This document shows positions 2,057 to 23,479 of a DNA stretch of 46,456 bases, piece by piece (positions within the stretch are counted from its first letter, which is position 1; the number at the start of each line of letters is the position of its first letter). The position numbers and the translations under genes are program-made. Origin of the DNA: a virus (Duplodnaviria; Heunggongvirae; Uroviricota; Caudoviricetes); IMG/VR virus record IMGVR_UViG_2563366990_000004; one strand, given 5' to 3'. The notes beneath the pieces are model-generated. The model was not told the DNA's origin. It did not search any database and worked only from the letters and a program-made list of their open reading frames with translations.

Positions 2057-4495
2057 TTAAAAATCAGCCTGACTCGGGATCAGTTTTTGCCAGATAGCTG
2101 AAACGTATTTTGCCTGATAACGGGCGTCATCAAGTGCATTATGGCGCTCACCTTCGAATGGAATAGCCGTTCTGGCATCGAAGTCTATGGCTTTCCCCAG
2201 CTCAACGATTGTGCGTACATCGCGATCGTTGTAGTAACGCCACGGGCAGGGGATCCCCTGCCGTTCGTATGAACGGCGCAAAATCGTGTTGTCGAAGTTG
2301 GCTCCATTTCCCCAGACCTGAACAAAAAATTCACCGGAGTTTTCGTCGATAAATTCCCGCAGTTGTAACAGTGCATCATCTAACGGGATTTCATCGGTCA
2401 TAATGGCAGATTGCGCTTCGCGTGATTGCTTAAGCCACCATTTAATGGTGTCCCGATCAATGACTCCGCCAGCAGTTTCCAGATCGATAGTCTTACTAAA
2501 TTCCGGTCCCATATCTCCGGTTTGCGGATCGAAAAATATTGCACCTATTGAGATGATCGGGGCATTAGGATTTTTTCCCATGGTTTCAAGGTCGATCATT
2601 AGATGGTCACACGTCCTGCTGGTGGATGTGATTTCGTGATGACCGTTCACCGCAATTAAGGGATCTGCCGCTTCGCCAGTTTCACTATCGCTGGTGTGAT
2701 GCTGATCGTTACCAGCATTCTCATTGTTCGGATGTTCAGCGCCTTCTATTTCCTCCGGATCATCTTCCTGAACTTCAGCCTGATTTTTTTCATCGAATGT
2801 TTCCTGGTATGTTGCGTCGCCCATCACCGCGCCACAGTCAGGACAGTTGCCGCCACCGCTCTGACCGCAGGCGGTGCAGACTTTTTCCTCTTCCTGTTGC
2901 GCTACTGGTTCGGATTGTTTCGTTTCTGGCTCGTCTTGTAACGCATTTTGGCTGTTTTGTTCTGCTTTCTGGTCGTTCTGTTCCGTTTCTAGCTGGTTCT
3001 GGTTCACAGAATCGCAGGTTTCAATCCCCTTAACCCATTTCGAATCATTCGGGTCGCTAATCCCTTCAACAAACTCACCACGAGAAGCGGCAAGCAATTT
3101 GTCGGCATCTGGTCGACTGATGTCTGCTGCCTCCATAATTTTATTTACTTCTTCAGCGGTAACTTTTACCTGTGACTTGTCATCCAGCGGCTGCGGGTCC
3201 TGATGATGTTCAACTGTATCCGCTGCCATTGTTTCAGCCGTTGCCTGTTCATCTGCCATTGCGCCAGATGGTTGCGGGTTTTCTTCATCATTTTTTTCTT
3301 CTTCTGTTTTGCACTCAGCAGCCAGTCCGTCGTTAATTTCTTCCAGGATATCTTTTTCCGGTGTATGCCGGGCAGCCATGAGCGTTTCAGCTGTGGGATT
3401 CTCGTGATCAGTTTCTGTCAGGTTGGCATTGATATACCCCTGAAGGCGTCCCGGGTAGTGATAAAACTCAGGGTGGGCGCTCCGGATAAGTGCAAAAATA
3501 GCTGCGCGGGAATAGTCCAGGATACCAGGGGTTGCGCGAAGTGCTGCGGACCATTCCCTGAACGGACTTTCTTTTTTCAGGACGATTTCTTTTGCGCGAC
3601 GATAAACGCTCACGGGTATTTCATAAATATTAAAATCCATCGGAAGCGTGGCTGCTGCAGCCTCCACATCCAGAGTATCGAGGGTGTGTACTAAGTCAGG
3701 ATTACGATCGGTTTTATTTCCGCCACCGGCATTTGCACCGGAAGCCGTGCGGGTGATGCGAGAAACACGATTTCCTTTCATCCACTCTTTTGTCAGCAGA
3801 CCTCGATCGGTATAGTCAGCGTCCAGGTATGCTTCGAAAAAAGCAGTCATTAACCCCAGACTGGAATTAACGGGATTAGGGAAAACTTTGTCTGTGTCGC
3901 GTACCAGTTTATGAAGGTCGCGAATCTCCAGCGGGTCGAGCAGCTTTGTGTTGTGGGAAATAGCCAGGGCAGTAACAGCCGGCAGTTCTTCAGCTCGTGC
4001 GATATGTAATGCCTGAAGTTCTTCCCGTGAAACGTGCGTTACCGGTTTTTCGCTGCCATGTTGCGCAAGCCAGCGAATGGGTAGTTCCTGACCGGAAATT
4101 GGCAGGAGCATATTATCCTCAATCTCAGCCATGTCTTCGCCATTGACGTTGGTATTGTCAGTGCTGGCTGGTTTTTCCTGAACTGAGGGGGAAGGCGCTA
4201 TAAATATCATTGTGATGCCATCTTCCCCGCCTTTTTCATAGCGGTTGCAGAATTCAGTATCAAACACGCCTTCCGGTGGAAGGTCATTCACAACGGGGAA
4301 ATGGACGCGGACGGGTTTTTTGAAATCATCAGCGTCGTAGCCTGCCTCGTCCATTGCAACAACGCACCGCGAGATTGCTACAGATAATTTCTTTTCTGTA
4401 CTCCAGTAAAAACCCCCTTTAATCCCAAAGCGTTTTCTGACCTTGTCATTTTTTGCTTCGCAATATAGCGCAAATTCTTCTTTATCAGTGCTCAT
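2057..4495 (-). CDS. Large early-region exonuclease with C-terminal DnaQ-like (DEDDh) 3'-5' exonuclease domain; central acidic low-complexity linker and CxxC…CxxC zinc ribbon
   Basis: 812-aa ORF. C-terminal 180 aa contain IDLETMG … NGANFD … HNALDDA motifs typical of DnaQ/RNase T-like exonucleases. Sits where Rac carries recE; no RecT/Bet-like annealase gene is visible nearby. Confidence 0.7.
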   Translation of the reverse strand: MSTDKEEFALYCEAKNDKVRKRFGIKGGFYWSTEKKLSVAISRCVVAMDEAGYDADDFKKPVRVHFPVVNDLPPEGVFDTEFCNRYEKGGEDGITMIFIAPSPSVQEKPASTDNTNVNGEDMAEIEDNMLLPISGQELPIRWLAQHGSEKPVTHVSREELQALHIARAEELPAVTALAISHNTKLLDPLEIRDLHKLVRDTDKVFPNPVNSSLGLMTAFFEAYLDADYTDRGLLTKEWMKGNRVSRITRTASGANAGGGNKTDRNPDLVHTLDTLDVEAAAATLPMDFNIYEIPVSVYRRAKEIVLKKESPFREWSAALRATPGILDYSRAAIFALIRSAHPEFYHYPGRLQGYINANLTETDHENPTAETLMAARHTPEKDILEEINDGLAAECKTEEEKNDEENPQPSGAMADEQATAETMAADTVEHHQDPQPLDDKSQVKVTAEEVNKIMEAADISRPDADKLLAASRGEFVEGISDPNDSKWVKGIETCDSVNQNQLETEQNDQKAEQNSQNALQDEPETKQSEPVAQQEEEKVCTACGQSGGGNCPDCGAVMGDATYQETFDEKNQAEVQEDDPEEIEGAEHPNNENAGNDQHHTSDSETGEAADPLIAVNGHHEITSTSRTCDHLMIDLETMGKNPNAPIISIGAIFFDPQTGDMGPEFSKTIDLETAGGVIDRDTIKWWLKQSREAQSAIMTDEIPLDDALLQLREFIDENSGEFFVQVWGNGANFDNTILRRSYERQGIPCPWRYYNDRDVRTIVELGKAIDFDARTAIPFEGERHNALDDARYQAKYVSAIWQKLIPSQADF

Positions 4496-4587: not shown

Positions 4588-4776
4588 TTATCCAGCCGGT
4601 ATTTCGTTATTCAGGTACAGCGATACTTTTTTTAACGGGAGGCATTCGCCAGAAATTTTTTGCTCGTCTCTTGCCCGGAGGCATGATTCTTTACTGGCAT
4701 AAATTCCGGTAATCACATTCTGTGGCTCACCCGTTATAAGAAAAACAGTCATTACCAGTGCAAATGCAGAAGTCAC
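4588..4776 (-). CDS. Hypothetical small early protein with hydrophobic N-terminus
   Basis: 62-aa ORF in the early-left operon, translationally coupled to the upstream ORF (4-nt overlap 4773-4776). Confidence 0.35.
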   Translation of the reverse strand: MTSAFALVMTVFLITGEPQNVITGIYASKESCLRARDEQKISGECLPLKKVSLYLNNEIPAG

Positions 4777-4961
4777 TGCTGCCCCCCGAAAATACCAAGT
4801 TTAAGAAGGGCAATTCTGGAGAGTATGGAATTATCATTGAGAAGATAAGGCTCATATTTTCTCATCTTAATGGCATCTTCAGTAAACTCCCGGTTACTGA
4901 GCAGAACACCAATATCAAAACACCCTTCAGACGTATTAACGTTTGGTAATAACGTTTCCAT
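4773..4961 (-). CDS. Hypothetical small early protein
   Basis: 62-aa ORF, same strand and operon context as the exonuclease; overlapping stop/start with the next ORF. Confidence 0.35.
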   Translation of the reverse strand: METLLPNVNTSEGCFDIGVLLSNREFTEDAIKMRKYEPYLLNDNSILSRIALLKLGIFGGQQ

Positions 4962-5446
4962 TATCGTGTCCTCAACAATGAATTTTGTGATGTGGTGCCT
5001 GGTGCCTCCAGGTGACGTTAACCAGTTAACAATTAACGCCGGAATACAGAAGGATGCCCGTTACGCCCCGTAAAAGACCACTTTACGGATTTAACTGTTC
5101 CGCGTGCGCATAGCCGCATTCACCGCATCACAAAATTCACTTTAAAAAGGATGGCAGAGCAGTCATGGAGTCGAACTGATGCCACCAAAGACTACACATG
5201 GATATTGTGGCGGGGCTGTCACTTAAGCGTATGGTCAGCCTGACAACCCGGTGTCCTCAAGGGGAAGGAATAACCCCGCCATACTTACCGCCGCGCCATT
5301 TCGCGGATTGCCACAACCGGAAGCGCACGGTCGAATTAAATTTAACGACAAAGTACAGAGAGACGAGCTTCTCCGTGCGCTTTCGTGTTATGCCCTGACT
5401 TTTCAGGGTAAATTAACCAGTGGCAACCTGTTTTTACTGGTGCTAA

Positions 5447-17177: not shown

Positions 17178-17995
17178 AACTGGAAGATTTACCGAAATAC
17201 TACTCCCCAAAATCCCCCGGCCTGACTGATGCATCGGCCTCAACGTCGAAAGATGCGCTGAGTATCACTGATGTGATGGCCGCGCAGGGCATGACACAGA
17301 ATCGGGCTGAGATGGGGTTTTCTGCGTTCCTTGGGAAAATGGGCATTAGTATGAATGACAGAGAGCGGGCAACAGAATTGCTGACAGAATATGCACTCAG
17401 TCGGTGTGATCGCGTGGCGGCGTTAAGAAAACTCCCGGCAGAAATAAAACCGGCAGTGATGCGTATTATGGCTTCGTATGCGTTTGAAGATTATGCCCGT
17501 AGCGCGGCGAGCAAAAAACAGTGCCCCTGCTGTCACGGAAAAAAATTTATTGAAAGCGAGGTTTTTACAAACAAGATCCAGTATCCGGATGGTAAGCCGC
17601 CAGTGTGGGCAAAGTGCACAAAAGGCGTGTATCCGTCTTACTGGGAGGAATGGAAAAAAGTCAGGGAGGTGGTAAAAGTTGCCTGTCCGGAGTGTGGAGG
17701 GAAGGGAGAGGTATCCACTGCCTGTAAAGATTGTCGTGGGCGCGGTGTTGCCATTCATCGTGAAGAGTCGGAAAAACAGGGTGTGCCGGTTTTCAGAAAC
17801 TGTCAGCGTTGTGGTGGGCGTGGCTATGAAAGATTACCTTCAACGGAGGCATTTAATGCCATATGTAATGTAACCGATGCCATATCTCTCGATACATGGA
17901 AAAAAACAGTTAAACGTTTTTACGATACGCTGGTGGTGCAGTTTGATATTGAAGAAGCATGGGCAGAACAACAACTGAAAAAGGTGACCAGATAG
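17174..17995 (+). CDS. Q: Late-gene antitermination protein Q (QuuQ-like) with zinc-finger repeats
   Basis: 273 aa; N-terminus MKLEDLPKYYSPKSP…LSITDVMAAQGM and repeated CxxCxGxG motifs; immediately followed by a lambda-like pR'/qut. Confidence 0.7.
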   Translation: MKLEDLPKYYSPKSPGLTDASASTSKDALSITDVMAAQGMTQNRAEMGFSAFLGKMGISMNDRERATELLTEYALSRCDRVAALRKLPAEIKPAVMRIMASYAFEDYARSAASKKQCPCCHGKKFIESEVFTNKIQYPDGKPPVWAKCTKGVYPSYWEEWKKVREVVKVACPECGGKGEVSTACKDCRGRGVAIHREESEKQGVPVFRNCQRCGGRGYERLPSTEAFNAICNVTDAISLDTWKKTVKRFYDTLVVQFDIEEAWAEQQLKKVTR

Positions 17996-18000
17996 CTTTG

Positions 18001-18050
18001 TTGATTTTTCCCGAATCTGTGGTAAATTTGCCCTAACGATGGGTGTTTTA
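18001..18050 (+). promoter_or_regulatory. Late promoter pR' with qut-like element
   Basis: -35 TTGATT (18001-18006), 16-nt spacer, -10 TAAATT (18023-18028), then TGCCCTAACGATGGGTGTTTT, closely matching lambda pR' (TAAATTTGACTCAACGATGGGTTAATT). Confidence 0.65.
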
Positions 18051-18077
18051 TGCCTGACGTTAGAAGATTTTTTACAC

Positions 18078-18100
18078 CCCGCCGCCTGGCGGGTTTTTTT
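18078..18100 (+). terminator. tR'-like intrinsic terminator
   Basis: CCCGCC-GCCT-GGCGGG hairpin followed by TTTTTTT, ~50 nt downstream of the pR' -10. Confidence 0.65.
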
Positions 18101-18222
18101 ATGACTGAAATCACGCCAGTACAGTAAACGCGCTGGTGGCGGTGAATACCGGTCTTTCAGCTTGCTGGCTTTTTCGACAAGAGTTATTGGTGTGTCACGT
18201 TAACCGGAAAAGGGAAAAAGAC

Positions 18223-18420
18223 ATGCTGAAACAGCAGGATATGACCGAAACCGCCAGAGTGGTGTTTAATGAATTAAGCGTCACCGAACCGGCGACTGTC
18301 GGGGAGATTGCACAGAATACTTACCTTTCACGTGAACGCTGCCAGTTAATACTGACCCAGCTGGTTATGGCGGGGCTGGCAGACTATCAGTTCGGTTGTT
18401 ACAGACGCCTTCAGTCCTGA
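18223..18420 (+). CDS. Small winged-helix-like protein (65 aa)
   Basis: ATG 18223 after an A-rich RBS region; product MLKQQDMTETARVVFNELSVTEPATVGEIAQNTYLSRERCQLILTQLVMAGLADY…; hairpin plus T-run at 18407-18430 overlaps its stop. Confidence 0.45.
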   Translation: MLKQQDMTETARVVFNELSVTEPATVGEIAQNTYLSRERCQLILTQLVMAGLADYQFGCYRRLQS

Positions 18421-18430
18421 AGGCTTTTTT
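18407..18430 (+). terminator. Intrinsic terminator-like hairpin
   Basis: GCCTTC-AGTCCT-GAAGGC followed by TTTTTT. Confidence 0.45.
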
Positions 18431-18570
18431 ATTTGTGGTAAATGGGCGGCTGGTGGGTGTTAGGGGCACTCACCAGCCATCTGCTCATGCGTCCGGATCA
18501 CAAGCAAACCTCAGGCCCACTGCTTTGCGCAAAAGCAGAATGAGCCTATCAGAGACAGGCTTAATGATCC

Positions 18571-19623
18571 ATGCTTAGTACTGTAAAAATATCCAGTTGT
18601 GAGTTAATCAACGCCGACTGCCTGGAATTTATCCGGTCGTTACCCGAAAATTCTGTTGACCTGATAGTCACGGACCCGCCGTACTTTAAAGTGAAGCCTG
18701 AGGGCTGGGATAACCAGTGGAAGGGCGACGATGATTACCTGAAGTGGCTGGACCAGTGTCTTGCGCAGTTCTGGCGGGTGCTGAAACCTGCCGGAAGTCT
18801 TTACCTGTTCTGTGGCCATCGCCTGGCATCTGACATTGAAATCATGATGCGTGAACGCTTCAGTGTGCTGAACCATATTATCTGGGCGAAGCCGTCCGGA
18901 CGCTGGAACGGGTGCAACAAGGAAAGCCTGAGGGCGTATTTCCCCGCCACAGAGCGCATTCTGTTCGCGGAACATTATCAGGGGCCGTATCGTCCGAAAG
19001 ATGCCGGGTATGAGGCGAAGGGCAGGGCACTGAAACAGCATGTGATGGCCCCGCTGATTGCTTACTTTCGTGATGCACGTGCTGCCCTGGGGATAACGGC
19101 AAAACAGATTGCTGATGCCACAGGAAAGAAAAACATGGTGTCGCACTGGTTCAGTGCCAGTCAGTGGCAGCTACCGGACGAAAGCGATTATCTGAAATTA
19201 CAGGCGCTGTTTGCCCGGGTGGCAGAAGAGAAGCATCAGCGCGGAGAACTGGAAAAGCCACATCACCAACTGGTCAGCACATACAGTGAACTGAACCGAC
19301 AGTATACGGAACTGCAGAGTGAATATAAGCATCTGCGGCGGTATTTCGGTGTGACGGCGCAGGTGCCGTACACCGATGTGTGGACGCATAAACCGGTGCA
19401 GTACTATCCCGGGAAACATCCGTGCGAAAAACCGGCAGAAATGCTGCAGCAGATAATCAGCGCGAGCAGTCGTCCGGGTGACTTGGTTGCAGATTTCTTC
19501 ATGGGGTCGGGCTCAACCGTCAAAGCAGCGCTGGCACTGGGGCGTCGTGCAACTGGTGTTGAGCTGGAGAGTGAACGTTTTTTACAGACAGTGAAGGAGA
19601 TCCGGGACGATTTTTGCAGGTGA
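18571..19623 (+). CDS. Orphan DNA methyltransferase (beta-class amino-MTase: N-terminal DPPY motif, C-terminal FxGxG SAM motif)
   Basis: 350 aa; DLIVTDPPYF near the N-terminus and DLVADFFMGSGSTVKAA near the C-terminus; no restriction endonuclease gene adjacent. Confidence 0.85.
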   Translation: MLSTVKISSCELINADCLEFIRSLPENSVDLIVTDPPYFKVKPEGWDNQWKGDDDYLKWLDQCLAQFWRVLKPAGSLYLFCGHRLASDIEIMMRERFSVLNHIIWAKPSGRWNGCNKESLRAYFPATERILFAEHYQGPYRPKDAGYEAKGRALKQHVMAPLIAYFRDARAALGITAKQIADATGKKNMVSHWFSASQWQLPDESDYLKLQALFARVAEEKHQRGELEKPHHQLVSTYSELNRQYTELQSEYKHLRRYFGVTAQVPYTDVWTHKPVQYYPGKHPCEKPAEMLQQIISASSRPGDLVADFFMGSGSTVKAALALGRRATGVELESERFLQTVKEIRDDFCR

Positions 19624-19711
19624 CAGAGGTTGAGGAAAGGTTGAAGGGAGGATCATTTGTTATTGTTGTATATAATTATTCTACCCCTTTCCTGAGTCAG
19701 GTAAATATATA

Positions 19712-20434
19712 ATGGCAGTTGTCTGTTCTGTAATTCTGGTTTGTTCCCCGATCAATATTTTTATTGAGAAAGACAAACTTTCACTTGTGCCGGGCATGGT
19801 CATTCTGGTCACCAGAAACATCAGGGAGCTTTTTCGCACTTACACAGACCGGGTTAAGGTTGCTGATATAAATCACGATATAGTCAGTCAATATCTGGAA
19901 GGTGGGCGAAGGCGGATGAGCTCCCCACAGGCATGTTTTCCGCATTATCTCACTTCTGGCATTCATCAGCCTGTACTGGCAGAGGCGTTAATTACTAATC
20001 ATGGATTTCCCAGTGCTCCTTCTGGTGATTTGTCCACGATGACAGGGCTTTCATGTCTTTCTCTGTTTGCCAACGATGAGAGCCTGTCATCATTTTTGTC
20101 AAGGTGTTTAAGCAATACAAGCGATAAAGTCAGGGCAATAATTCAGAGCGATATATCCGTAAACTGGAAGCTTGGTGTTATTGCGTTACAACTGCATATG
20201 AGCGAAAGCTTGTTAAAGAAAAAGCTTAAAGATGAAGGAAACAGCTTCAGCCGCCTGTTGCTGGAAGAGAGGATGCGGGGGGCAGTAAATATGTTATGCT
20301 TTCAATATGGACGGGGAGCGATAGTGGCAGAAAAATGCGGTTATTCAAGCCTGTCTTACTTTATATCAGTATTCCACAGGTATTATGGAGTACCTCCTGA
20401 CAAATATGTGTCTCTGCATATGGTTGACTTTTAA
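19712..20434 (+). CDS. AraC/XylS-family transcriptional regulator (cargo gene)
   Basis: 240 aa; C-terminal double-HTH region (…FSRLLLEERMRGAVNML…IVAEKCGYSSLSYFISVFHRYYGVPP); visibly AT-rich relative to flanking phage genes. Confidence 0.75.
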   Translation: MAVVCSVILVCSPINIFIEKDKLSLVPGMVILVTRNIRELFRTYTDRVKVADINHDIVSQYLEGGRRRMSSPQACFPHYLTSGIHQPVLAEALITNHGFPSAPSGDLSTMTGLSCLSLFANDESLSSFLSRCLSNTSDKVRAIIQSDISVNWKLGVIALQLHMSESLLKKKLKDEGNSFSRLLLEERMRGAVNMLCFQYGRGAIVAEKCGYSSLSYFISVFHRYYGVPPDKYVSLHMVDF

Positions 20435-20556
20435 TTTCATCCTGCTGGCGGATGGAGTGCTGGTGGTCGGCATTGTGGTGGTGCTTTTTCCTTTGGTTAA
20501 AAAGGACATGCCAGGTAGTTAGCGGGTATCAGTCATGCCCAGAAAATTTTAAATGT

Positions 20557-20795
20557 CTCACAATTCAGACGGTTGACAGTTGTCTGTTTTGCGGGGAGTT
20601 TGTTAAAAGAAACTGGCATGGTGAATCCCCCTGAGCGGAGGGGCGACTGGTGCATCAGGTGTTATCTTTGATACCCAGGAAAGTGAACGCGCGGGTTCGG
20701 TGGCACCGGGCTGAACTCACCGGGAGGCACCCGGCACTATGCGCATGATGTACAGATACGCGGCTTCAGCCCCTCTCCGGAGGGGCTTTTCTGTG
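20557..20795 (+). repeat. Repeat unit A (~240 bp) ending in an intrinsic terminator
   Basis: Starts CTCACAATTCAGACGGTTGACAGTTGTCTG; internal hairpin CCCCCTGAGCGGAGGGG; shared block GCGGGTTCGGTGGCACCGGGCTGAACTCACCGGGAGGCACCCGGCA; ends CAGCCCCTCTCCGGAGGGGCTTTTCT. Confidence 0.6.
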
Positions 20796-21042
20796 CCTTA
20801 TGCATCACAGTTTCTGGAACCCTGAGTACTACAGTATCAGTCAGGGTGCTATATTTGCAGATGTGATGAAAGCCTGCCGGCAGGCAGGGCGTATCGGAAA
20901 TGACCCAGTAAGAGAAAACGTTGACTCAGATACCGGTGCTGAGTTACCGGGAAACCGGCATCACATGACCGCTATCCTTCATGGCTCTCTCAGGAGAGCC
21001 TTTTTACTGGAGAAAACCGCTTCCCCGTAAAATGCCGTGTTG

Positions 21043-21282
21043 CTCACAATTCAGTCAGTTGAAGGTTGTCTGCCCGACTGAGAATTTGTTAAAAAATTTC
21101 TGCATGATGAATCCCCCTGTGCGGAGGGGCGGCTGGTGTACGGAATGGTCTCTGATGATCGTTAGCGAGAATGACGCGGGTTCGGTGGCACCGGGCTGAA
21201 CTCACCGGGAGGCACCCGGCATCATGTAATGAACGGTACATAGCGCTACTCTTCAGCCCCTCTCCGGAGGGGCTTTCTTATG
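21043..21282 (+). repeat. Repeat unit B (~240 bp), diverged copy of unit A, ending in an intrinsic terminator
   Basis: CTCACAATTCAGTCAGTTGAAGGTTGTCTG…CCCCCTGTGCGGAGGGG…GCGGGTTCGGTGGCACCGGGCTGAACTCACCGGGAGGCACCCGGCA…CAGCCCCTCTCCGGAGGGGCTTTCTT; a further hairpin with minus-strand terminator polarity at 21290-21315. Confidence 0.6.
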
Positions 21283-21511
21283 GATAAAAAAAGCCCGCAT
21301 GGTGAGATGCGGGCAGCAAGGAATAAACAACAAAACGTGAAGTAATCAATTTTTCAGCTGGCGAATAATACCCGACAGTAATCACTCTGCGCAACTGCGC
21401 GGCCTTTTTCGTATTGCGGGCTGTAGTCTTCCTCCTGCCATTGTCCTGTAACTTCCGGACTTCAGCCCGCCCCTCATCTGACTCACAACATTATCCCGAC
21501 CGGGAGGATTC

Positions 21512-23479
21512 ATGGCATTTAAACACTATGACGTGGTCAGGGCGGCGTCGCCGTCAGACCTTGCGGAGCGACTGACTCAAAAACTGAAGGAGGGGTGGCA
21601 GCCATTTGGCAGTCCTGTCGCCATCACGCCTTATACCCTGATGCAGGCCATTGCGGCGGAAGGTGATGTCACCACACCTGTGGTGGTGAAGCCGTCGGAT
21701 GGAGAAGGCACAGTTATCAGCGCCACCAGCGACCCGGAGTATTACTTTGTTGTGGTTCTGGCAGGGCAGTCAAACGGCATGTCGTATGGTGAAGGCCTTC
21801 CGCTGCCGGAGACATATGACCGTCCGGACCCGCGTATTAAGCAGCTGGCGCGCCGAAGTACGGTGACACCGGGAGGTGCCGCCTGTAAGTATAACGACAT
21901 TATTCCGGCGGACCATTGTCTGCATGATGTGCAGGACATGAGCCGTCTTAACCATCCGAAAGCGGACCTGTCAAAGGGGCAGTACGGAACCGTGGGGCAG
22001 GGGCTGCATATCGCCAAAAAACTGCTGCCGTTTATACCGGCGAATGCGGGCATTCTGCTGGTTCCGTGCTGCCGTGGTGCTTCGGCATTCACAACGGGTG
22101 CAGACGGCACATACAGCGAATCAGCCGGTGCATCGGAAAATTCACTGCGCTGGGGTGTGGGTAAGCCGCTGTATCAGGATTTGGTGAGCCGGACTAAAGC
22201 CGCACTGGCGAAGAACCCGAAAAACCGTCTGCTTGCGGTGGTGTGGATGCAGGGAGAAGGTGATGTGGCAGTGGGGACGCATGCGCAGCATTCAGGGCTG
22301 TTTAGTGCGATGGTGAATCAGTTCAGAACGGACCTTGCCGGTCAGGCATCACAGAGCACAGGAGGCAGCGCATCAGCGGTACCGTGGGTTTGCGGGGACA
22401 CAACGTATTTCTGGAAGCAGCGTCATGCGGAAGGGTATGCATCAGTATACGGAGGGTATAAGGGTAAGGAGTCGCAGAACATTTTCTTTGTACCGTTAAT
22501 GACGGATGAGAATGGTGCGAATGTGCAGACCAATGACCCGGCAGAAGACCCGGACCTGGAAGCCGTCGGTTATTACGGTTCAAAGTGGCGTAATGACCAG
22601 AAGACCTGGACATCTGTGGACAGGGCCAGCCATTTCAGTTCATGGGCTCGCCGTGGGATTATTTCCGACCGTCTGGCAACGGCGATTCTGGTGCATGCCG
22701 GGAGAACCGCTGAATTCATTACCGGAAAACAGCCTGATACGGTGAAGCCCACCGGACCTTCCGGTGAAGGCCCGGAGAGAGAGCCGGAAGCCCCGGTCAG
22801 TAACCGAACCCTGATGAGTCTGCTGGCGTCCGGTGAAGACCTGGCATCACAGGGCTGGCGCTATTATCACAAACCGGCGAGCGGAGACAGTGTTGATAAA
22901 AACATCGCTGAGGCTGTGGTCAGTGATGAGGGTGCCACCGGTGGTAAGGCCCTGCAACTGAACAAACCGGAAAGCCACATCTGGTTTCTGGAGCATGATG
23001 CCGCCGGGCAGGGGGCAGAGTTGCTGAAGAAAGGCGGACGTGTGAGCGTGCGGTTTAAGGTGCCGGGCGCACTGGTGCCGAATCAGTTTGCCCTGGGTAT
23101 TTACTGGCAGTTGTCGTCCCTGCCGGAGGGAGTGACGCTGTCAGAGGAAGGCAACGACATGCTGATGTCCTTCTTCCTGCAGACGGATGCGACGAACCTG
23201 AACGCGATGTACCACAAGAAGCAGAATGCGAAGCTGGATACGTTCGGGGTCTTTGATAACGGATGGCACACACTGGCTTTTGAGTTTGCCGGAAACAACA
23301 GCATTCAGGTGACGCCGGTACTGGATGAGAAACGGGGTACACCGTTCACACTGGTGAAATCTCCGGCATCAGGGGCGGCGGACAAACTGCAACTGACAGG
23401 CATATCAAAGGCGGCGACATATACGCTGCTGATTGACAGTGTGAAGGTGGAAGTGAACAACGCGGATGCCGCGGCATGA
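21512..23479 (+). CDS. nanS-p: NanS-p-type sialate O-acetylesterase (N-terminal DUF1737, SASA/SGNH esterase core)
   Basis: 655 aa; N-terminus MAFKHYDVVRAASPSDLAERLTQKLKEGWQPFG (DUF1737-like) and esterase motif VVLAGQSNGMSYG; sits between Q and the lysis genes as nanS-p does in Stx and related lambdoid phages. Confidence 0.75.
   Translation: MAFKHYDVVRAASPSDLAERLTQKLKEGWQPFGSPVAITPYTLMQAIAAEGDVTTPVVVKPSDGEGTVISATSDPEYYFVVVLAGQSNGMSYGEGLPLPETYDRPDPRIKQLARRSTVTPGGAACKYNDIIPADHCLHDVQDMSRLNHPKADLSKGQYGTVGQGLHIAKKLLPFIPANAGILLVPCCRGASAFTTGADGTYSESAGASENSLRWGVGKPLYQDLVSRTKAALAKNPKNRLLAVVWMQGEGDVAVGTHAQHSGLFSAMVNQFRTDLAGQASQSTGGSASAVPWVCGDTTYFWKQRHAEGYASVYGGYKGKESQNIFFVPLMTDENGANVQTNDPAEDPDLEAVGYYGSKWRNDQKTWTSVDRASHFSSWARRGIISDRLATAILVHAGRTAEFITGKQPDTVKPTGPSGEGPEREPEAPVSNRTLMSLLASGEDLASQGWRYYHKPASGDSVDKNIAEAVVSDEGATGGKALQLNKPESHIWFLEHDAAGQGAELLKKGGRVSVRFKVPGALVPNQFALGIYWQLSSLPEGVTLSEEGNDMLMSFFLQTDATNLNAMYHKKQNAKLDTFGVFDNGWHTLAFEFAGNNSIQVTPVLDEKRGTPFTLVKSPASGAADKLQLTGISKAATYTLLIDSVKVEVNNADAAA

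Follow-up and report, generated by a model that had tools for sequence, protein, structure and literature searches.

What occupies the region of about 1.08 kb between an AraC-family regulator gene and a NanS-p-type esterase gene in a lambdoid prophage, when no protein-coding gene is apparent there? The question is raised by IMG/VR record IMGVR_UViG_2563366990_000004, a stretch of 46,456 nucleotides (nt) assigned to Caudoviricetes, which was analysed as a whole and is referred to here as the window. A model that saw only the letters (the sequence-only reading) had described two similar units about 486 bp apart in this region, and took them for promoter-to-terminator small RNA (sRNA) units filling the slot that holds the tRNA genes and stxAB in Shiga toxin (Stx) phages. 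The explanation considered probable here is that the region is a conserved noncoding module upstream of a lambdoid-prophage nanS-p, made up of a tandem array of three sRNA genes of the STnc100 family and a convergent sRNA gene.

The repeat of two units is real and well above chance. Direct reading of the region recovered all the features that had been listed, each at its position, and a repeat finder returned direct repeats spaced 485-487 bp apart, namely 20557-20652 versus 21043-21138 (78% over 96 nt), 20690-20741 versus 21175-21226 (96% over 52 nt, with the identical 46-nt block inside) and 20764-20789 versus 21251-21276 (100%). Compared globally, 20557-20796 (unit A) and 21043-21285 (unit C) are 76% identical; shuffled controls averaged 50% and did not exceed 55%. 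The CCCCC..GGGG hairpin is found in both units by direct reading and by the repeat finder, and the GC hairpin with T-run that ends each of them is called by a terminator scan at 20768-20787 and 21255-21274. Variation between A and C is confined to one internal segment and the tail: the core segments are 89-94% identical, and the internal variable region (55%) and the 3′ tail (60%) are near the shuffled background. What the description in terms of two units had missed is a third, divergent unit (unit B) between them.

The view that the region holds no convincing open reading frame (ORF) is borne out. The ORF at 20800-21030 (76 amino acids) has no Pfam match, and in two homologous E. coli prophage loci (L001 and L002), where the DNA is 96% conserved, its ATG is replaced by ATA and a 1-nt indel disrupts the frame. 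Coding potential of the repeats was rejected, as Pfam gives only a C-terminal fragment of DUF3927 (ORF 20385-20522). Descent of the units from tRNA or stx genes was rejected as well: ARAGORN found no tRNA genes in the whole window, a permissive search with the tRNA model of Rfam (RF00005) gave no match in 20400-21520 at E-values (E) up to 10, and neither a tRNA remnant nor a coding-gene remnant was detected within the units.

The Rfam/Infernal search that had been proposed as a check identifies units A and C. When the window is scanned at gathering thresholds, both match RF02076 ('Gammaproteobacterial sRNA STnc100'; model positions 1-206, gathering score 47 bits) over its full length, unit A at 20587-20796 with 141.8 bits and unit C at 21073-21285 with 164.6 bits, which is 3 to 3.5 times the gathering score. 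Both units are canonical members of this catalogued prophage sRNA family, and the core of unit C is identical to the core of E. coli 2012EL-2448. The interpretation as promoter-to-terminator sRNA units thus gains from family membership, and from homologues that are transcribed and bound by Hfq, but the units are not a new kind of element: the STnc100 family is already known and the array is ordinary for lambdoid prophages. The features of the array are as follows (R1 is our own covariance model of the core, described below).

20557-20615, plus strand: upstream block and putative promoter of unit A, with TTGACA at 20573-20578, TTGTCT at 20580-20585 and TGtTAAAAG at 20601-20609 (direct reading)
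20616-20795, plus strand: predicted RNA of unit A, canonical STnc100, ~180 nt (Rfam 141.8 bits; R1 92.6 bits; minimum free energy fold; terminator scan)
20847-21005, plus strand: unit B, a divergent STnc100-like gene with a predicted RNA at ~20861-21005 (sub-threshold Rfam match; R1; fold; terminator scan)
21043-21101, plus strand: upstream block and putative promoter of unit C, with TTGAAG, TTGTCT and TGtTAAAAA (likeness to unit A)
21102-21282, plus strand: predicted RNA of unit C, canonical STnc100, ~181 nt (Rfam 164.6 bits; R1 88.8 bits; terminator scan)

STnc100 is among the most often annotated bacterial sRNA families, with no function assigned (PMC9029176). In E. coli EDL933 there are 11 copies; transcriptome reads exist for every one, and a Northern blot confirmed one of them (PMC5331693). 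A copy 75 nt downstream of stx2B has been found in outer-membrane vesicles (PMC12370729); it overlaps the Hfq-bound sRNA EcOnc27/sRNA103, which is supported by Northern blots and by cross-linking and analysis of cDNA (CRAC) with Hfq (PMC12711010; PMC7873438), and single-nucleotide variants of the stx2-adjacent STnc100 are statistically tied to the outcome of haemolytic uraemic syndrome (PMC12711010). Units A and C align with this copy from end to end, upstream block and terminator included, and their array likewise sits directly upstream of nanS-p; in contrast to the single copy of the Stx2a phages, the window has three tandem units.

Structure was examined in 46 loci that were gathered from species-representative genomes of Enterobacterales with an exact 20-mer of the conserved block. 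The alignment used for the structure test comprises 49 distinct cores and was made with MAFFT, unfitted to structure; the covariance model built from it (R1) found 86 copies. The conserved core consists of a closing helix (P1), a hairpin (P2), an H-type pseudoknot, in which the 6-9 nt immediately 3′ of P2 pair with the loop of hairpin P4, and a further hairpin (P5). Across the 49 cores, 91.8% of the cells of P1, P2, P4, P5 and the pseudoknot are paired, versus at most 46% when the partners are slid by 1-3 columns, and changes on both sides are seen in 16 of 30 pairs overall (7 of 8 in P1, 4 of 8 in P4 and 4 of 5 in the pseudoknot). In the 86 copies, 93.5% of cells are paired, and both partners vary in 21 of the 25 nested pairs. 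The helices of STnc100 (closing helix, the CCCCC/GGGG, GGGUU../..AACUC and CCGGG/CCCGG hairpins, and the terminator) are therefore kept by compensatory change. Specifically for the pseudoknot, with 57 distinct helix sequences, the duplex has -8.2 kcal/mol with its own loop versus -4.6 when loops are swapped between RNAs, and 0 of 10,000 permutations reach the observed value. The P2 and P5 loops are nearly invariant, and the core loops GAAUCCCCCUnnGCGGnGGGGC and ACUCACCGGGAGGCACCCGGCA are near-invariant in Escherichia, Citrobacter, Enterobacter, Kosakonia, Kluyvera, Pantoea, Erwinia and Rosenbergiella.

In unit A the core spans 20616-20742, with P1 at 20616-23 / 20735-42, P2 at 20628-31 / 20640-43, the pseudoknot at 20647-53 / 20703-09, P4 at 20693-700 / 20711-18 and P5 at 20720-24 / 20730-34, followed by a variable tail (20743-20767) and the terminator (20768-20787 and a U-run). 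The core of unit C spans 21102-21227, with the pseudoknot at 21133-39 / 21188-94, and is followed by a tail at 21228-21254 and a terminator at 21255-21274 with its U-run. The minimum free energy (MFE) fold of unit A gives P1, P2, P4, P5 and the terminator, whereas that of unit C favours pairing between P2 and the terminator instead. The P2 hairpin (CCCCCUGnGCGGAGGGG; 20623-20644 in A, 21109-21130 in C) and the terminator (GCCCCUCUCCGGAGGGGC; 20768-20787 and 21255-21274) are near-copies that can swap partners, a feature of the lambdoid units that is not kept in other genera.

Unit B is a divergent STnc100 relative that stays below the gathering score of the family, unlike its two neighbours: a permissive Rfam scan of 20400-21520 matches it at 20837-21012 with 35.7 bits against the 47 required (E=7e-6), and R1 matches it at 20857-20970 with 25.5 bits. 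Its P1 is formed by AUGUGAUG (20861-68) and CAUCACAU (20959-66), P2 is replaced by GCCUGCCGGCAGGC (here P2′), P4 is GACUCAG / CUGAGUU and P5 is CCGG-GAAA-CCGG; the terminator scan calls a hairpin with T5 at 20983-21000. The MFE fold yields P1, P2′, P4, P5 and the terminator (z = -2.9). The region of unit B is 96% conserved in the two prophages L001 and L002, where the terminator is of other sequence yet still a hairpin with T5. Because this unit lies between A and C, the locus is an array of three units, whose P1 helices start at 20616, 20861 and 21102 with a period of ~243 bp.

Where transcription would begin and end can be judged from the sequence around the cores. Conservation of the upstream block equals that of the RNA: its pattern TCACAATTCAG..GTTGA..GTTGnCTG..TTTGTTAAAA does not vary among A, C and two Stx2a-phage copies. 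The whole block of C is 72% identical to that of A and shares these invariant elements. In A and C an extended -10 element (TGtTAAAAG/A) precedes P1 by 6 nt and is itself preceded, at a distance of 18 nt, by TTGTCT; in unit B an extended -10 (TGcTATATT, 20847-20855) stands 5 nt before P1. The TTGACA-like hexamer to which attention had been drawn is present in unit A (20573-20578; TTGAAG at the same place in unit C) but is probably not a -35 element: a 17-nt spacer leads from it to GAGTTT, a poor -10, and TTGTCT with TGtTAAAA fits better. The promoter of the units is thus probably the extended -10 beside P1. A similar layout is seen in the related sRNA PasD2 of enteropathogenic E. coli (EPEC), with TTGACT, an 18-nt spacer and TAAAAA, for which RNA-seq coverage and the size of the Northern band give an estimated 5′ end at the first G of P1; sigma-70-like hexamers can also be recognised by eye just before P1 in the unrelated upstream sequences of Kosakonia, Kluyvera and Pantoea. 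Since the extended -10 is conserved 6 nt upstream, and in view of the 5′ end of PasD2, the 5′ ends of the window RNAs are placed at the start of P1 and would lie near 20616, 20861 and 21102, with 3′ ends near 20795, 21005 and 21282. The terminator scan called 8 terminator-like sites versus 2.3 expected, and four plus-strand hairpins of this kind lie between the AraC-family gene and nanS-p, at 20768, 20983, 21255 and 21387.

The position of the array can be described more precisely with its neighbours.

19712-20434, plus strand: AraC-family regulator gene, the cargo at the stx-equivalent position (Pfam HTH_AraC, HTH_18)
20443-20522 (about), plus strand: 3′ remnant of a DUF3927 gene, with which the conserved DUF3927/STnc100/nanS-p backbone begins on the left (PF13064, profile 28-51 of 53)
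21293-~21471, minus strand: predicted convergent Hfq-type sRNA gene (homology; terminator at 21314-21293 by scan; 5′ end placed by alignment)
21387-21407, plus strand: extra terminator-like hairpin and T-run in the nanS-p leader (terminator scan)
21512-23479, plus strand: NanS-p-type sialate O-acetylesterase gene (Pfam DUF1737, SASA, DUF6645)

Further neighbours with Pfam matches are a P21-type Q antiterminator (17174-17995), a DNA methylase (18571-19623), DUF1378 and a holin; in homologous loci the nanS-p counterpart is annotated as a SASA family carbohydrate esterase. The proposal that the units fill the stx-equivalent cargo slot does not hold. In Stx2a phages the genes run Q, methylase, three tRNAs, stx2A, stx2B, one STnc100 and nanS-p, so that these phages keep an STnc100 copy between stx2B and nanS-p (PMC12370729), and the alignment of this copy with A and C reaches from upstream block to terminator. 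The comparison with the Q-nanS-p regions of Stx phages, which had been suggested, does find a counterpart of the sRNA units, but as part of the backbone and not of the cargo. Since the Stx2a phages carry their copy at this point, the sRNA belongs to a conserved backbone (Q, methylase, [cargo], STnc100, nanS-p), in which the AraC-family gene is the variable cargo. The latter assignment follows from homologous flanks around a segment with no nucleotide match: megablast matches the AraC segment (19582-20442) to none of 5,426 complete E. coli genomes, and both of its flanks are 93-97% identical to prophages of Shiga toxin-producing E. coli (STEC). To the left, 16000-19581 is 97% identical to STEC O103/O111 prophages, and to the right, homology to E. 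coli prophages resumes at 20443, in sequence annotated as a DUF3927 family protein; insertion of the AraC gene truncated the DUF3927 gene. The closest phage match of the AraC protein is an HTH protein of phiSTEC1575-Stx2k (63% amino-acid identity). Loci L001 and L002 have the same array (two Rfam matches and unit B), with a restriction-modification M subunit or TerB with DUF3927 as cargo, and at least 80% of the 1.08-kb region is present in 344 of the 5,426 complete E. coli genomes.

Antisense to the nanS-p leader, the minus-strand sRNA gene adjoins the terminator of unit C back-to-back. A four-sequence alignment that includes the PP6 region of EPEC E2348/69 (NC_011601 1444797-1444978) has a mean column identity of 93%, the seed CCUUGC is retained (CCUUGCUGCC) and the terminator stem shows compensatory changes relative to the EPEC copy; the gene is a homologue of the sRNA encoded there. 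The EPEC sRNA, E2348C_1409.E2348C_1408.IGR, has the homologues EcOnc08/21/42 in enterohaemorrhagic E. coli (EHEC), and its partners in the ligation and sequencing of interacting RNAs (RIL-seq) include cfa, dppA and tir. For EHEC lambdoid prophages, convergent "dyads" of Hfq sRNAs have been described in the interval from the late promoter to the lysis genes (PMC7873438, reviewing Tree et al. 2014), and together with the STnc100 array the convergent sRNA would complete this published arrangement. The order STnc100, convergent sRNA and esterase is that of E2348/69 PP6; unlike in the EHEC dyads, the plus-strand partner is triplicated in the window. AsxR and AgvB (RF02703/RF02702) were rejected as candidates for the antisense partner, as neither is found at gathering score in the window, nor, with E up to 10 allowed, on either strand of 20400-21520; the partner is an sRNA of the EcOnc08/21/42 type instead.

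The other relatives to be considered are PasD1 and PasD2 of EPEC E2348/69 (Pearl Mizrahi et al. 2021), homologous to EHEC EcOnc13, which according to a preprint (Zhu, Shabalina and Storz 2026) share ancestry and fold with STnc100. Their stability depends on Hfq, and RIL-seq gives them many partners; those PasD1 chimeras that were sampled (1060384-1060434, for an RNA at 1060260-1060432) and the seed UGUGAG lie in the 3′ tail. The window units resemble PasD in their slot (DUF3927, sRNA, then nanS-p or holin) and in having P1, P2, P4, a pseudoknot (AAUGAUC/GAUCAUU in PasD2), a promoter just before P1, and a tail with terminator, and R1 matches PasD with 36.6 bits (E=9e-7). They differ from it in P5, a hairpin that PasD lacks, and in the tail, which in PasD carries the seed UGUGAG; this seed is not in the tails of A, B or C. 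Because, in addition, PasD falls below the Rfam STnc100 threshold and blastn finds only a 13-29-nt match with the window, at the start of P1/P2, the window units are best regarded as STnc100 proper and not PasD, with only the core fold in common. A homologue of PasA or PasC downstream of nanS-p, as in E2348/69, was sought and not found, the only match being a 20-nt terminator-like one at 4157-4176. The name IpeX (3′ region of DLP12 nmpC) was considered as a synonym and rejected, as NC_000913 570000-582000 has no STnc100-like match with either Rfam or the core model. CUCACA, the motif that the PasD seed targets in EPEC RIL-seq, stands at the start of the upstream block of A (20557-20562) and of C (21043-21048) and recurs as CUCACAAC (21482-21489) ~23 nt upstream of the nanS-p start codon, which may be coincidence.

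The proposed function of the array builds on these relatives. Each unit would have its own sigma-70 promoter of the extended -10 type and its own intrinsic terminator, so that a lysogen would make RNAs of ~145-181 nt, laid out as a compact core, a variable single-stranded tail and a terminator hairpin. By homology, these RNAs may associate with Hfq and act in trans by base-pairing, mainly via the 3′ tail, and since the tails and internal variable regions of A, B and C differ, each of the three probably has its own set of targets. The plus-strand terminators would, in cis, keep transcription not modified by Q (e.g. from the AraC gene) from reaching nanS-p and the lysis genes. OmrA/OmrB and PrrF1/PrrF2 are tandemly duplicated core-genome sRNAs of simple structure; the window units are like them in being neighbouring paralogues with a conserved scaffold and divergent, presumably target-binding segments, and unlike them in being prophage-borne and in having a large pseudoknotted core.

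Several observations weigh against this picture. STnc100 proper has no validated target, and the mechanism of the effects on fimZ and espA upon overexpression of sRNA103 is unclear (PMC12711010; PMC7873438). A simple consensus promoter scan called no promoter for any unit, those given above being put forward from conserved elements, and the true 5′ end is uncertain, as the Rfam model, in whose consensus the pseudoknot is absent, begins 29 nt upstream of P1 and hence of the 5′ end proposed for the window units. The terminators of A and C are followed by short U-tracts (UUUUC, UUUCUU), which is weak for Hfq binding. Finally, the core is deeply conserved and occurs with neither tail nor terminator in abutting arrays, beside tRNAs and in the dicF-dicB transcript, which an sRNA model of seed plus terminator leaves unexplained and which leaves room for a function of the core that is independent of base-pairing by the tail.

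These other settings are as follows. In Pantoea, Citrobacter and Erwinia, 3-7 cores form head-to-tail arrays (L019 6397-7837, L024 4134-5930, L009 3112-4489, L022 3738-5463 and L037 217-739), in which neighbouring cores are 4-15 nt apart and there is no room for promoters or terminators. Same-strand tRNA genes directly abut a core in L028, L022 and L036 (in L028 the core extends to 4900 and tRNA-Met starts at 4901) and lie within a few hundred nt of one in L009, L021, L034, L040 and L044. A Kosakonia member (L030, 4138-4310) is directly downstream of a peptidase M3 gene, with a match to STnc560 ~1 kb away, in a setting that does not look like a prophage; its upstream sequence is common to ten Kosakonia/Enterobacter loci (L007, L008, L013, L014, L023, L026, L029, L039, L041 and L043). 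The window itself holds a fourth STnc100-like core on the minus strand (5132-4986; R1 44.2 bits, E=9e-9), in the spacer between DicF (5149-5200, minus strand, an Rfam match) and a 62-amino-acid DicB-like ORF (4773-4961, minus strand). P1, a pseudoknot (CAGUUAA/UUAACUG) and, with compensatory change, P5 (CCUGG/CCAGG) are all present in it, but a terminator is not. Its counterpart in the Qin prophage of E. coli K-12 (NC_000913 1649451-1649584) scores 47.5 bits with R1 and 34.4 bits with Rfam, below the threshold of 47, and the K-12 RefSeq record annotates no feature at this core.

The functional entity might therefore be the conserved core and not the tail, i.e. an autonomous, pseudoknotted four-way-junction RNA module of Enterobacterales prophages, loosely cloverleaf-like in shape, that binds a protein or serves as a tRNA-like processing, punctuation or decoy element, with Hfq-dependent base-pairing being secondary or specific to the terminated lambdoid versions. 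This is a serious alternative, although a rather unlikely one. The loops that are near-invariant across eight genera, the closely packed cores, those abutting tRNA genes, and the copy without terminator between dicF and dicB, in the window as in K-12, would all be accounted for, and the arrangement of P1, a 3-nt junction and P2, with P5 abutting the 3′ strand of P1, is reminiscent of the D and T arms of tRNA. The cloverleaf analogy is our own reading of the topology. Against this alternative, the core goes unrecognised by ARAGORN and by the tRNA models of Rfam, the 5-nt loop of P5 lacks a T-loop motif, and PasD, which has no P5, is nevertheless an abundant Hfq-dependent sRNA with its RIL-seq contacts in the 3′ tail. 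If the core is what matters, the three tandem units would be the terminated lambdoid form of the core array.

It is improbable that the main action of the units is in cis, where stacked intrinsic terminators and a structured leader would insulate nanS-p and the lysis cassette from upstream cargo transcription until Q-modified transcription reads through, with the RNA as a by-product. The four plus-strand terminator-like hairpins would suit such a role, as would the position of the module between cargo and nanS-p or lysis genes in the E. coli loci examined and directly after stx2B in Stx2a phages, but it would leave unexplained the ~125 nt of covarying structure before each terminator, the promoters at P1, members outside late operons (e.g. 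downstream of the Kosakonia peptidase M3 gene), and the accumulation and Hfq binding of homologous RNAs (PMC5331693; PMC7873438). Very little credence is given to the repeats being decayed tRNA, stx or other coding genes, or genes for small peptides. Short ORFs do overlap the units (e.g. the MVNPPERRG... frame from 20618), and some EDL933 copies of STnc100 have ribosome footprints, with a ribosomal coverage value of up to 3.2 (PMC5331693). Beyond the lack of tRNA and Pfam matches and the loss of start and frame described above, P1 has no ATG in most genera, the CCU-nnG-CGG-nGG-GGC stretch varies at codon positions 1 and 2 and not at 3, and substitutions in the helices are compensatory. The array of trans-acting sRNA genes with a convergent partner is the preferred reading.

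For annotators, the module should be treated as sRNA genes, and not as empty spacer or cargo. Little is added as discovery, as STnc100 is in Rfam and its position beside stx2 and nanS-p has been published. The locus and its relatives do provide handles on the function of STnc100, namely (i) the third paralogue, (ii) the pseudoknot, (iii) the localised variation, (iv) the arrays and tRNA adjacency in other genera and (v) the unannotated K-12 relative between dicF and dicB. The pseudoknot appears neither in the structure line of the Rfam STnc100 consensus nor in the text of the preprint by Zhu and colleagues, and the same is true of the arrays, the tRNA adjacency and the dicF-dicB core. Elsewhere in the window, the Rfam scan also matches the antitoxin RNA sok at 13916-14088 on the plus strand (RF01794, 110.8 bits), which points to a toxin-antitoxin locus of the hok/sok type in the prophage's early region.

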